Source of the DNA: Minisyncoccia bacterium
GTDB lineage: Bacteria; Patescibacteriota; Minisyncoccia; Phycocordibacterales; UBA1006
NCBI GenBank assembly: GCA_044229075.1
Contig: JBGATS010000002.1
Coordinates: 40,058 to 104,057 of the forward strand
Reading direction: 5' to 3'
DNA length: 64,000 nt
The notes beneath the pieces were generated by a model, which saw nothing but the letters and a program-made list of their open reading frames with translations, had not been told where the DNA came from and ran no database searches. Below, piece by piece: positions 17,540 to 20,250 of this stretch (position 1 is the stretch's first letter; the number at the start of each line of letters is the position of its first letter). The position numbers were made by a program, and so were the translations under genes.

Positions 17540-20250
17540 GACTCTATTATAAGCAATTTTTGCGATTTTGTCTTGTCTTTTTCAGTATAGAGCATACTCC
17601 AAATTTCCTCGGTAATGAACGGCATAAACGGGTGGAGAACCTTGATCAAGGTGACCAAGTGTGTACGGAGCGTCCATTGTGCGCTGACTTTATTTCGATG
17701 CTCTGCAATTTTTACCTTTGATCGTTCTAGGATATTACTCGCAAATGTGTCCCAAAAATAATGATAGAGTTTTTCAGAAACCAGATAGAATTTATACTCT
17801 GACATTTCCTTGGTAATTTCAGTAATAAACGCATTCAATGCATCAATAGATTGCCTGTCTTCTGTATCATATTCAGGTTTCTGATCAAGATCTAAATCAT
17901 AAGTTTGTTCCATGACGAATCGTGTCGCGTTCCAGATCTTGTTTGCGAATTTTGAATAGGCTTTTATTTTCTCCTCGGTCATCGTGGTTGGCTGTCCTGG
18001 TCCGACGCCGACAATCATCGACATACGCAGTGCGTCTGCGCCGTGTTTTGCAATCGTTTCGAGCGGATCAATAGCAGTCGCAGGGTTTGATTTGCTCATT
18101 TTCTTTCCATTTTTATCCAACACCATTCCGTGCAAATAAACAGTTTTAAAGGGTACCTCGTCGAGTAAATATCGCGACATCAAGATCATACGTGCAACCC
18201 AAAAGAATATAATATCGTTTCCTGTTTCCAGTACTGATGTTGGGTGATAGGTTTTTAAATCTGATGTATGTTCAGGCCAACCAAGCGTTGAAAATGTCCA
18301 TAGTCCTGATGAAAACCATGTGTCGAGCGTGTCAGAATCTTGAGAAAGATTTTCACCTTTGGGATTTATAAAAATAGGGAATTCAGTAATACTTGCATTA
18401 TCTACACGCCATTTTTTTCGGAATGCAACAAGATCATATTCTTCTTCAAGAACGGCTTTCATTACTGCAGAAAATGTAGCATGTCCCACAATTAAGATGT
18501 CACCATTACTTGCGTCATTATGGATAATTTCCCAAGCACGCTTTGCACGAGCGATCAGTTCATCCTGGGTTTCACCAGTTTTATCATTGAAAGCTGCCAT
18601 CAGTATAGGAATTTTTCTACTAGGAGTACCTTCAACACTTCCGCCATTGATTTCACGAAACTCAGGAGAAGTTTCAATATCAAGTCCCAACGTATCAGCA
18701 ATTATTTTTGCAGTATCATGAGCGCGCGAAAGGTCTGAAGAGAATATTTTAGTAATATTTTTATCTTTCAATAATTTAGCTGTAGTTTTCGCTTGCTCAC
18801 GACCTTTGTCGGTAAGTGGTGTATCATTTTGACCAGCATATATATGCGCAGCATTTGCTTCTGATTCGCCATGGCGGACTAAAATAATGTTTCGCTTTTT
18901 TTGCAAATGGATATTATTATTTTTGTCATACCAAACAGGAATCCGATGTCCGTACCAAATTTGTCGGGAAATACACCAATCGCGTAGGTTTTCGATCCAA
19001 TGAAAATAAACCTTTTCAAATTGTGCTGGCATTATTTTAATATCACCATTACGCACTGTTTCGATCATGAGTTCTTTCAATGATTTATTATTGCGTGCAG
19101 GAATTTTCTTGTTCACATCAACGAACCACTGCAATTTTGGTAATGGTTCAATAATTCCTTTTGACCGTTCTGCGATAGAGACATTTTGTTTTACCGTTTC
19201 TTCTTTCTCGAGTAATCCTTCAGTTCTCAAGTATTCAATAACTACTTCACGCGCCTCGGTTGTTTTCTTGCCTAATATAGTTTCGTCACCAACCGTCATT
19301 TTTGCAAATTCGTTGATTACAGGTTTTACCTCGAGTCCGTGACGCTGTGCAATATCCCAGTCGATTTGACTGTGTGCAGGTGTCACACCCAGGGCGCCTG
19401 TTCCAAATTCTGGTTCGACAGATTCATCAGTAATAATTTTGATTGAAAGTGGAACACCACAAAAAACACCTTCGTATGTTTTTCCTACGAATTCTTTATA
19501 ACGTGCATCATTAGGATGAACCGCTACGGCAACATCACCAACCTTTGTCTCGGGTCGGGTAGTAGAAATGGCAACAGGGAAGTCTTTCCAATATTTGAAG
19601 GTATATAATAGTGCATCGCGTTCCTCGTGATCAATTTCATCATCTGAAATAACCGTCTGACCTTTTGGATCCCAGTTTACAATTTTATATCCACGATAAA
19701 TCAATCCGTCATCATACATTTGTTTGAACGCGGTGTTTACGGCAACCGATCTTTTTCCATCCAATGTAAATGCTTCACGTGACCAATCAACAGATGCGCC
19801 CATTTTGCGTACTTGGCTCACAATGGTGTCATGGGAATTTTGTGCGAATTCGTTTACTCGTTTCAAAAATTCCTCGCGGCCGAGATCTTGTTTACGGATT
19901 TTTTCTTTTTCAAGATTTTTTTCTACAATGGTTTGGGTGGCAATGGCTGCATGATCGGTTCCTGGGAGCCAGAGCGTTTTTTTGCCTTGCATACGTGCAA
20001 ATCGTGTCATGATATCCTGGATCACCAACATGAACGCATGTCCGGTATGTAATGTTCCGGTTACATTGGGTGGTGGTAGTACTATCGAAAATGGCTCTGC
20101 GCTTACATCAGTAACTCCTTTTTCAATACAAATATCTGGATTAAAAAATCCAGATTCTTCCCAAGTTTTGTAGATAGATTCTTCAACTTCAGAGGCATTA
20201 TACGGTTTTAATAATTTTTCAGGAACATTTGCCTTGTTTTCAAAAGTCAT
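17527..20250 (-). CDS. valS: Valyl-tRNA synthetase carrying an inserted histidine-phosphatase (PGAM-like) domain
   Basis: [15 protein letters not shown] (HIGH), [13 protein letters not shown] (KMSKS), [16 protein letters not shown] and [20 protein letters not shown] are present. Between the last two motifs, about 190 extra aa contain [11 protein letters not shown]...[15 protein letters not shown]...[13 protein letters not shown]...ILIVGHATF. These are the RHG catalytic motif plus the second conserved His of the histidine phosphatase superfamily. Confidence 0.9.
   Translation of the reverse strand: [907 protein letters not shown]

Follow-up and report, generated by a model that had tools for sequence, protein, structure and literature searches.

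What is a histidine phosphatase doing inside a tRNA synthetase? This question is raised by the valS gene in a 64,000-nucleotide stretch of a Minisyncoccia bacterium genome (assembly GCA_044229075.1, contig JBGATS010000002.1, positions 40,058 to 104,057 of the forward strand), hereafter the window. An earlier reading of the letters alone, which we call the original prediction, had proposed that this gene encodes a valyl-tRNA synthetase (ValRS) with a histidine phosphatase domain inserted into it. Both halves of that proposal are borne out below. The account that we favor, and that we consider about evenly poised between right and wrong, is that the gene encodes a complete two-enzyme chain, namely a ValRS plus a nested compact (~180 aa) branch-1 histidine phosphatase, that relatives have subsequently dropped, replaced, or swapped the phosphatase through recombination between valS alleles, and that isoleucyl-tRNA synthetase (IleRS) captured members of the same phosphatase clade independently.

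The host protein is recognizable as a ValRS. Its 907-aa open reading frame (ORF) contains each motif quoted in the original prediction, and its scores pass the cut-offs of the NCBIfam valS equivalog model NF004349 (854.6 bits vs 704) and of TIGR00422 (797.1 bits vs 612.1). Pfam matches on the protein comprise tRNA-synt_1 in two stretches, His_Phos_1 (PF00300, E=4e-40), and Anticodon_1. The HIGH, KMSKS, and editing motifs are invariant among 52 homologues, as are residues T230, R232, E234, T235, G283 to G285, H293, and D297 of the CP1 editing domain. An AlphaFold2 model of the whole chain, built from a 52-sequence alignment, has a mean predicted local distance difference test (pLDDT) value of 88.8 and a predicted template modeling (pTM) score of 0.84. 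When this full-length model was compared with known structures by Foldseek, the top match was the Thermus thermophilus ValRS structure 1GAX (E=2.6e-53). The protein also matches the editing-domain structure 1WKA at 4.6e-23. The window protein is thus best matched, in both sequence and fold, by 1GAX, with which it shares a class Ia Rossmann core, the HIGH and KMSKS signatures, a CP1 editing domain, and a helical anticodon-binding domain. On these grounds, the window protein is the orthologous ValRS of this organism.

The two enzymes differ at two places, one of which is the C terminus. There was no Pfam match to the C-terminal coiled coil (Val_tRNA-synt_C, PF10458) anywhere in the 907-aa protein, and the alignment with 1GAX ends at residue 698 of 862, such that the last ~160 residues of the T. 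thermophilus enzyme, including its coiled coil, are without a counterpart. The original prediction had correctly pointed out this absence. The coiled coil is also missing from the ~727-aa relatives that carry no insert, and its absence is therefore a trait of the lineage that is unrelated to the insert.

The second difference is the insert itself. The phosphatase domain is nested between the PVWY and TLDTWFSS segments of the ValRS, where residues 25 to 443 align with residues 11 to 418 of 1GAX and residues 634 to 892 align with residues 445 to 698. At this location, the Cys-x2-Cys...Cys-x2-Cys knuckle that lies between WY and DTWFSS in 1GAX (residues ~417 to 444) is replaced by a 198-aa phosphatase cassette. 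The site follows the WCISRQ...PVWY segment and corresponds to the CP3 subdomain in IleRS nomenclature. Among IleRS enzymes, the topology and zinc content of CP3 vary between species (PMC7191050), and the CP2-3 linker, ARDWNVSRNRYWG in the yeast enzyme, lines the pocket that holds the tRNA 3′ end (PMC7955072). CP3 begins directly after this linker, whose equivalent in the window ValRS is a segment of 13 residues. For the replaced loop, the original figure of ~35 aa is too high, since close relatives have 21 to 22 aa at this place and the ValRS of T. thermophilus has ~26 aa. Likewise, the span first assigned to the insert (aa 445 to 635, nucleotides 18346 to 18918) falls inside the real segment, but the true difference is wider and extends from aa 442 to 639 (nucleotides 18334 to 18927).

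In the AlphaFold2 model, the insert is borne at the tip of the CP3 β-hairpin, whose strands span residues 447 to 459 and 621 to 628, and the entire cassette is explained by this hairpin together with the phosphatase fold. GC content is even across the insert. Hallmarks of mobile elements were not found at the cassette borders; the only repeats are short, attributable to chance, and not located at the borders. An insertion of the intein, transposon, or intron type was therefore rejected, given that the borders have no terminal repeats, splicing motifs, or endonuclease.

The nested domain has the features expected of a working phosphatase. It matches positions 1 to 179 of the 194 positions in the PF00300 profile with 138 bits, well over the gathering cut-off of 21.7. 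The catalytic motif and second active-site histidine that the original prediction had recognized are present as R459, H460, R509, E533, and H590, and these residues are conserved in the orthologues. Specifically, R459, H460, G461, and R509 are invariant even though the embedded copies have diverged to 35% identity (range 35 to 85%), N466 is conserved in at least 90% of them, and the second histidine is retained in the context GH, SH, or AH in all 39 of the 39 ValRS-embedded copies. When the window was compared with the closest relative whose DNA was used for this purpose (L005, Candidatus Paceibacterota), the insert had a ratio of nonsynonymous to synonymous substitution rates (dN/dS) of 0.058 and the core one of 0.069, which places insert and core under equal purifying selection, although the values are rough because dS is near saturation. 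The insert is also the most confident part of the modeled chain, with pLDDT values of 92 to 97 in context and 95.9 when modeled alone. Since the catalytic residues and signatures are conserved and dN/dS is low, both the ValRS and the phosphatase look functional. A degenerate insert or pseudo-enzyme was rejected on the basis of the same conserved residues and the dN/dS near 0.06.

Assignment of the domain to a phosphatase subfamily is less clear. The insert has the alpha/beta/alpha fold of the superfamily. Foldseek comparisons with the insert alone yield a template modeling (TM) score of ~0.75 and E values of ~1e-14 to branch-1 histidine phosphatases without singling out a subfamily, and the matches include PspA (4IJ6), GpgP (4PZ9 and 6S2Q), CobC (3HJG and 6NRU), 3E9E, and TIGAR. 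The models on which the insert alone scores highest are those of CobC, dPGM, GpmB, PspA, and SixA. These specific identities were considered and rejected by score, including CobC (TIGR03162, 98.2 to 103.3 bits vs a cut-off of 162.9), SixA (TIGR00249, 34.8 bits vs 74.5), and three models from the dPGM, GpmB, PspA, and SixA set (NF038349, 77 to 82 bits vs 225; NF002901, 75 to 80 bits vs 261; NF045917, 62 to 69 bits vs 350). An adaptation of the embedded domain to RNA binding was also rejected, in that there is no charge shift relative to the free-standing forms: the embedded domains are acidic, with a net charge of −3.6, and the free-standing ones have a net charge of −3.4.

Could this architecture be produced by faulty assembly or annotation, either through a chimeric contig or through read-through of two genes? 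Beyond the general risk that attends metagenome assemblies, nothing favors this explanation, and we give it practically no credence. An identical protein is present in NCBI on a 109.7-kb contig. Among the top 120 clusters of related proteins, ~39 have the same nested architecture (898 to 935 aa), and the assemblies in question, which come from NCBI, ENA, JGI, and Logan, are named Paceibacterota, Nomurabacteria, Wolfebacteria, or Pacebacteria. The in-frame architecture is thus shared across several assembly sources, with conserved synteny, and this recurrence in independent assemblies is what excludes an artefact. Moreover, ValRS sequence flanks the insert on both sides within a single ORF, GC content is uniform, and the whole-chain fold is confident. 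The original prediction had named a missing His_Phos match, an assembly artefact, and catalytic substitutions in orthologues as grounds for abandoning it, and none of the three was found.

Another ~75 of the top 120 clusters consist of 714- to 743-aa ValRS proteins that have a CP3 loop of 21 to 22 aa. A genome scan located the nested form also in metagenome-assembled genomes labeled Saccharibacteria (L006 and L007), and free-standing genes encoding ~175 aa in other Saccharibacteria. Separately, one 814-aa ValRS (P0049, on a 109.6-kb NCBI contig) carries, at this very CP3 position, 110 inserted residues that are unrelated to the phosphatase and for which no Pfam domain is listed. It is further evidence that the CP3 loop is a permissive hotspot for insertion.

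The relationship between the nested and insert-less forms becomes apparent from a direct comparison of close relatives at the DNA level. A ValRS on Logan contig L001 (P0003) is 97.5% and 96.3% identical in protein sequence to the window ValRS on either side of the loop and carries a 76-aa loop with four cysteines (Cys4) in place of the window's phosphatase. At the DNA level, window nucleotides 21863 to 18929 are 95.0% identical to L001 and nucleotides 18333 to 17328 are 95.4% identical, whereas the intervening 595 bp of the window (18334 to 18928) and 226 bp of L001 (4760 to 4985) do not align. The breakpoints are sharp, falling at the codon for Tyr441 upstream and that for Asp640 downstream. 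Over a background of 95%, identity rises to 100% for ~120 bp upstream and to 98 to 100% for ~400 bp downstream of the cassette. The Cys4 loop itself (aa ~442 to 517, L001 4760 to 4985) has the form CLDC...CPVC and resembles a zinc knuckle with a filling of ~55 aa. Unlike L001, most close relatives have a 21-aa CP3 loop that is free of cysteine.

The order gmk-cmk-tsaD-valS-prsW-hsp20...lepA-murJ is shared by the window, L001, L033/L034, and L035, among which L001 has the Cys4 loop, L033/L034 have no insert, and L035 has a phosphatase that is 36% identical to that of the window. ValRS genes with the phosphatase, with the short loop, and with the Cys4 loop thus share one genomic context and are alleles of one gene, not paralogues. 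A second, paralogous valS was rejected for the same reason, as all CP3 forms lie within the gmk-cmk-tsaD-valS-prsW block. In all, four CP3 states are found at this one locus: the 21-aa loop, the 76-aa Cys4 loop, and phosphatase types that are 36 to 45% identical to each other. Given that near-identical ValRS alleles exist without it, the insert is dispensable.

Core and insert also differ in their histories. Over 703 pairs of insert-bearing ValRS proteins, the identities of core and insert correlate weakly (Spearman rho=0.16). For example, P0004 and P0005 share 93% identity over the core and 40% over the insert, and pairs with 80 to 90% core identity range from 33% to 94% in insert identity. 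The hairpin stems track the core lineage, whereas the body of the domain tracks the cassette type. The phylogenies of core and insert are therefore uncoupled. The simplest reading is that valS alleles recombine homologously at the highly conserved motifs flanking the cassette, with repeated loss in addition.

Where did the cassette come from? In a tree of the domain, 38 of the 39 embedded domains form one clade, and small phosphatases that stand alone (P0121, P0237, and others) are its sisters. One such protein is located directly beside a valS gene. On L042, the gene order is sigma70, tsaD, P0288, valS, prsW, wherein P0288 is a 181-aa free-standing phosphatase whose gene has a 4-bp overlap with tsaD, and the adjacent valS encodes an 884-aa enzyme with a 22-aa CP3 loop and with the coiled coil (Val_tRNA-synt_C) present. 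At 40 to 46% identity, P0288 is no more distant from the embedded domains than these are from one another. The same order of tsaD, phosphatase (P0282), and valS recurs on L039, L040, and L041, and the 4-bp overlap with tsaD is found on L039 and L040. Thus, members of the same clade occur either nested in ValRS or, within the same syntenic block, as a gene directly upstream of an insert-less valS. The adjoining gene may have become an internal domain, or the reverse may have occurred.

Other members of the clade depart from this pattern. A 915-aa ValRS on a 627-kb JGI contig (P0036) has a His_Phos domain nested between retained CxxC halves (CIHC...CSQC). With only 28% identity to the insert of the window ValRS, this domain clusters among those of tandem and IleRS type, and it was probably captured independently. 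A free-standing copy located 4 bp downstream of gatB (P0237, L003 1953 to 2492) has serine in place of the second catalytic histidine (LLVSSAG) and may be inactive or mechanistically different. The compact phosphatase is often encoded by two tandem genes, as on L011 (3495 to 4001 and 3998 to 4519), and many two-domain phosphatase proteins of ~415 aa exist (e.g., P0246). These tandem forms suggest that the phosphatase works as a dimer, and the tandem pairs found in IleRS CP3 may have been captured as a unit. Within the 64-kb window, no second His_Phos gene was found.

Hosts other than ValRS came to light through an exhaustive profile search, which gave 758 representatives at E<=1e-30. A word-index search with the insert only had returned free-standing proteins alone, and the ValRS hosts surfaced with the profile search. 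In this larger set, the compact clade takes three forms: free-standing (~178 aa), tandem (~415 aa), and nested in large synthetases. In ValRS hosts, the domain is found both at CP3 and at another site, upstream of WCISRQ, and as many as four copies are present (P0241 to P0244). The IleRS hosts score above the TIGR00392 cut-off and end in a DUF5915 domain; their CP3 holds the phosphatase as a tandem pair, and further copies follow KMSKS by ~70 aa. The domain is therefore nested in one to four copies and at several sites (before CP2, at CP3, and after KMSKS), always in the catalytic domain, and nested ValRS and IleRS hosts include Gracilibacteria and Peregrinibacteria. The domain tree points to a minimum of four to six capture events, a count that derives from a neighbor-joining tree of a short domain and is to be read cautiously. 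The original prediction had spoken of a lineage-specific strategy, which understates the spread across several Patescibacteria classes and two synthetases.

When one of these IleRS hosts served as the query, more than 100 PF00300-bearing clusters were retrieved, their sources being Gracilibacteria, Peregrinibacteria, and Peribacteria, and a large share of the clusters add GNAT, AAA_33 kinase, HAD, or DUF559 domains; the ranking favors matches that share the phosphatase domains of the query, and the result thus speaks to abundance and not to universality. JGI automatic names for these hosts read 'isoleucyl-tRNA synthetase/phosphohistidine phosphatase SixA/...GNAT'. Some of the IleRS proteins (P0399, P0400, P0451, P0453, P0459, P0476, and P0482) are multi-module chains of 1500 to 1860 aa in which His_Phos is joined to GNAT, an AAA_33/zeta-toxin-like kinase, HAD, or a DUF559 endonuclease, and one multi-module IleRS includes an IS200-type Y1 transposase domain. 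The genome under study offers another example. Its leucyl-tRNA synthetase (LeuRS), encoded in the same window, has nested NUDIX stretches just before the CP1 editing domain (aa 460 to 586), as the original prediction had anticipated when it drew a parallel to NUDIX insertions in leuS. Thus, LeuRS is a second class Ia synthetase of the same genome that hosts a hydrolase.

What might the nested enzyme do? On the reading that we favor, the ValRS portion would charge and edit tRNA-Val in the normal manner, as indicated by its intact HIGH, KMSKS, and editing motifs and by the existence of insert-less alleles. The phosphatase would strip a terminal phosphate from a small substrate: His460 would be phosphorylated transiently, Arg459, Arg509, and His590 would hold the phosphate, and Glu533 would serve as the acid. 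The substrate would most likely belong to the class of nucleotide or nucleotide-like phosphomonoesters that are handled in house-cleaning or salvage, as is faintly suggested by the neighbors of stand-alone copies in Saccharibacteria, which abut Ham1/RdgB (with a 4-bp overlap), an HD_3/YfbR-like 5′-deoxynucleotidase, and dCMP deaminase. Fusion would provide co-expression and co-localization with the translation apparatus and leave the chemistry of aminoacylation unchanged. Our best guess, held with moderate confidence, is therefore a tethered or co-expressed phosphomonoesterase of the nucleotide type that acts independently of aminoacylation. Several observations weigh against this assignment. 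The indication of a nucleotide substrate comes from three neighborhoods, all in a different class (Saccharibacteria), where stand-alone copies are also found divergent from a PP-loop (TilS-type) gene; other stand-alone copies adjoin the translation genes gatB, rpsT, rplS, tsaD, and a tilS-like gene; and the insert misses the cut-off of every curated phosphatase subfamily in NCBIfam. Furthermore, repeated capture by two paralogous editing synthetases hints at a link to aminoacylation or tRNA that is more specific than co-expression.

Such a link is central to the idea that the domain repairs tRNA ends, so that a tRNA whose end was damaged or modified by a toxin could be charged once the domain, beside the A76 pocket, had removed a 3′- or 2′-phosphate or what is left of a pyrophosphate, with the NUDIX domains of LeuRS participating in the same pathway. 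Toxins that pyrophosphorylate the tRNA CCA end are known. CP3 starts right after the linker that lines the tRNA 3′-end pocket in IleRS, ValRS and IleRS have captured the domain recurrently, NUDIX resides in the LeuRS of the same genome, and HAD and P-loop kinase modules occur in IleRS. Moreover, the presence, absence, and diversity of types between close strains resemble those of accessory or defense functions, and the stand-alone copies adjoin tRNA-related genes (tsaD, gatB, and a tilS-like gene). Against this stand the acidity of the embedded domains, which gives no sign of an RNA-binding surface, and the varied insertion sites and copy numbers, which fit a fixed geometry at A76 poorly; also, we know of no histidine phosphatase that acts on RNA 3′ ends. 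A role in tRNA-end repair or defense is accordingly an attractive minority hypothesis, grounded in CP3 position, recurrent capture, and cassette dynamics, and we judge tRNA-end repair to be unlikely. A broader and somewhat bolder version holds that the ValRS, IleRS, and LeuRS of Patescibacteria are docking platforms for exchangeable His_Phos, NUDIX, HAD, GNAT, and P-loop kinase cassettes that act on synthetase substrates, either repairing phosphorylated or pyrophosphorylated tRNA 3′ ends or inactivating toxins that mimic aminoacyl-adenylates, and that the swapping of cassettes between strains reflects an arms race with translation poisons encoded by phages or competitors. We regard this proposal as quite unlikely. 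If true, no enzyme of tRNA repair or immunity would have been seen inside a tRNA synthetase before the one in ValRS.

The remaining explanations divide between other activities and none at all. That the insert is a passenger or structural module, tolerated in a permissive loop and spread by recombination, or serving merely to dimerize or stabilize ValRS, would be in keeping with the hypervariability of CP3 among close relatives (21 aa, the 76-aa Cys4 loop, the unrelated 110-aa insert, and phosphatases), with dispensability and cassette exchange, and with the many unrelated domains found in IleRS. We nevertheless find it doubtful, as the catalytic residues are kept across inserts that have diverged this far, the insert evolves under a dN/dS as low as that of the core, and mobile-element hallmarks are missing from the borders. 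Less probable again is a protein phosphatase similar to SixA or PGAM5 that would reverse inhibition by a kinase by acting on phospho-His, -Ser, or -Thr of ValRS or a translation factor. The weak similarity to SixA, the 'SixA' names given by JGI to IleRS-embedded copies, and the P-loop kinase modules of some IleRS hosts accord with this possibility, but the SixA score is far under its cut-off, phosphatases of small molecules are its nearest matches in both sequence and fold, and no kinase partner was seen near valS. The original prediction itself suggested a coupling of nucleotide or aminoacyl-adenylate hydrolysis to the synthetase. On such a reading, valyl-adenylate, mis-activated threonyl-adenylate, or a related nucleotide would be hydrolyzed in concert with the synthetic site as a further proofreading step. 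The hosts are indeed editing synthetases, and the catalytic-domain location is near the active-site entrance. Histidine phosphatases, however, pass a terminal phosphoryl group to the catalytic histidine, and Val-AMP has no terminal phosphate. Because the mechanism of the superfamily needs this group, hydrolysis of an aminoacyl-adenylate is chemically unlikely, and the presence of the domain at several sites in one to four copies speaks against a coupling that depends on exact geometry relative to the synthetic site. In addition, orthologous insert-less alleles are common, the phosphatase also exists as a separate protein, and the canonical CP1 editing domain is intact. The proposal is thus unsupported, and we consider it very improbable.

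The fusion can also be compared with known systems. In NF040702 ('ileS_w_GNAT'), curators have recognized a case in which an editing synthetase of class Ia likewise harbors an enzyme domain of unrelated kind, and many Gracilibacteria and Peregrinibacteria IleRS proteins carry GNAT and His_Phos together. That model concerns a different host enzyme and a different fold, and the window protein scores 157.6 bits vs its cut-off of 1999. NCBIfam has no curated model for synthetases that bear His_Phos. Phosphatases of the PhoE type, T. thermophilus TTHB049 (177 aa), PspA, GpgP, and CobC share the fold, catalytic residues, and size of the insert and provide its top Foldseek and sequence matches, but they are 23 to 28% identical to it and none is nested in another enzyme. 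The mycobacterial RNase H/acid phosphatase (NF005567) and the MutT1 protein, in which NUDIX is joined to His_Phos (NF052459), likewise connect a branch-1 phosphatase to a nucleic-acid or nucleotide enzyme, and the insert matches their phosphatase halves. The MutT1 pairing echoes the NUDIX domain in LeuRS and the His_Phos domain in ValRS of the window. These proteins differ in being end-to-end fusions, and the insert scores 75 vs 326 and 31 vs 475, respectively. The free-standing Patescibacteria phosphatases P0288, P0282, P0237, and P0121 belong to the same domain clade and are 40 to 46% identical to the embedded copies; unlike the nested form in the window, they are separate polypeptides, and P0288 and P0282 are encoded between tsaD and valS.

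Table 1. Features of the window that relate to the ValRS, its phosphatase cassette, and associated genes. A1 denotes the alignment of embedded copies.
Feature	Residues	Window coordinates	Strand	Remarks
valS		17527..20250	−	907-aa valyl-tRNA synthetase, host of the insert
HIGH motif (HTGH)	68-71	20038-20049	−	
TTRPET editing motif	230-235	19546-19563	−	
Second editing-domain motif (GTG...H...D type)	283-294	19369-19404	−	
CP2-CP3 linker	422-441	18928..18987	−	Upstream anchor of the cassette
Variable CP3 cassette	442-639	18334..18927	−	Hairpin strand, phosphatase domain, hairpin strand
His_Phos_1 domain envelope	455-624	18379..18888	−	Compact branch-1 histidine phosphatase
RHG motif	Arg459, His460, Gly461	18868..18876	−	Invariant in A1
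Second phosphate-binding Arg (in SSDLSRA)	Arg509	18724..18726	−	Invariant in A1
Presumed general acid (in PEFRE)	Glu533	18652..18654	−	At least 90% conserved in A1
Second active-site His (in VGHATF)	His590	18481..18483	−	At least 90% conserved
Downstream anchor	641-651	18298..18330	−	Second half of the Rossmann fold resumes
KMSKS	717-721	18088-18102	−	
tsaD		20675..21862	−	Conserved upstream neighbor of valS
tRNA-Val(GAC) gene		24706-24779		
LeuRS gene		4406-7876	+	1156 aa, two nested NUDIX (PF00293) stretches
Best NUDIX stretch in LeuRS	323-441	5372-5728	+	

The surroundings of valS have peculiarities of their own. The spacer between tsaD and valS contains an 85-aa hydrophobic ORF (20332 to 20589, + strand) on the strand opposite valS. 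An ORF is kept at this position with 85 to 127 aa in L001 and L033/L034, and in L042 the same position is the site of the free-standing phosphatase gene. Farther upstream, guanylate kinase and cytidylate kinase are fused in a single 399-aa ORF (22038 to 23237, + strand), and these are separate adjacent genes in L001, L033, and L035. Window nucleotides 21863 to 23245 give no blastn alignment to the otherwise 95%-identical L001, thereby marking a second mosaic segment. On the other side, a 237-aa ORF without a Pfam match (15525 to 16238, + strand) is located between tRNA-Phe (15386 to 15459) and hsp20, in a stretch of low GC content (0.26 to 0.32), and is missing at the matching position in L033/L034.

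The suggestion that this architecture may be undescribed also stands, in that the searchable literature yielded no description of it. Our search of full-text literature, with subscription-only papers outside its scope, found no paper, a 2026 survey of domain insertions included, on either ValRS or IleRS with a histidine phosphatase inside it, on the split counterpart, or on cassette exchange. The architecture is already visible in automatic annotation, both in JGI product names and in Pfam domains computed in advance.

Few enzymes are as conserved as tRNA synthetases, and it is rare for those of bacteria to gain whole enzymes inside their catalytic domain. The fused, split, and absent states of the ValRS phosphatase constitute a clean natural experiment, and CP3 presents itself as a place where class Ia synthetases could be engineered to accept insertions. 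If the phosphatase is merely a co-expressed housekeeping enzyme, then this system would show how genome-reduced bacteria build multi-enzyme proteins via permissive CP3 loops. If instead its targets are tRNA ends, nucleotides that aminoacylation sets free, or toxins directed at synthetases, then it would add a previously unseen level to the quality control of translation, or to defense, in the ultra-small, host-dependent Candidate Phyla Radiation (CPR) bacteria.

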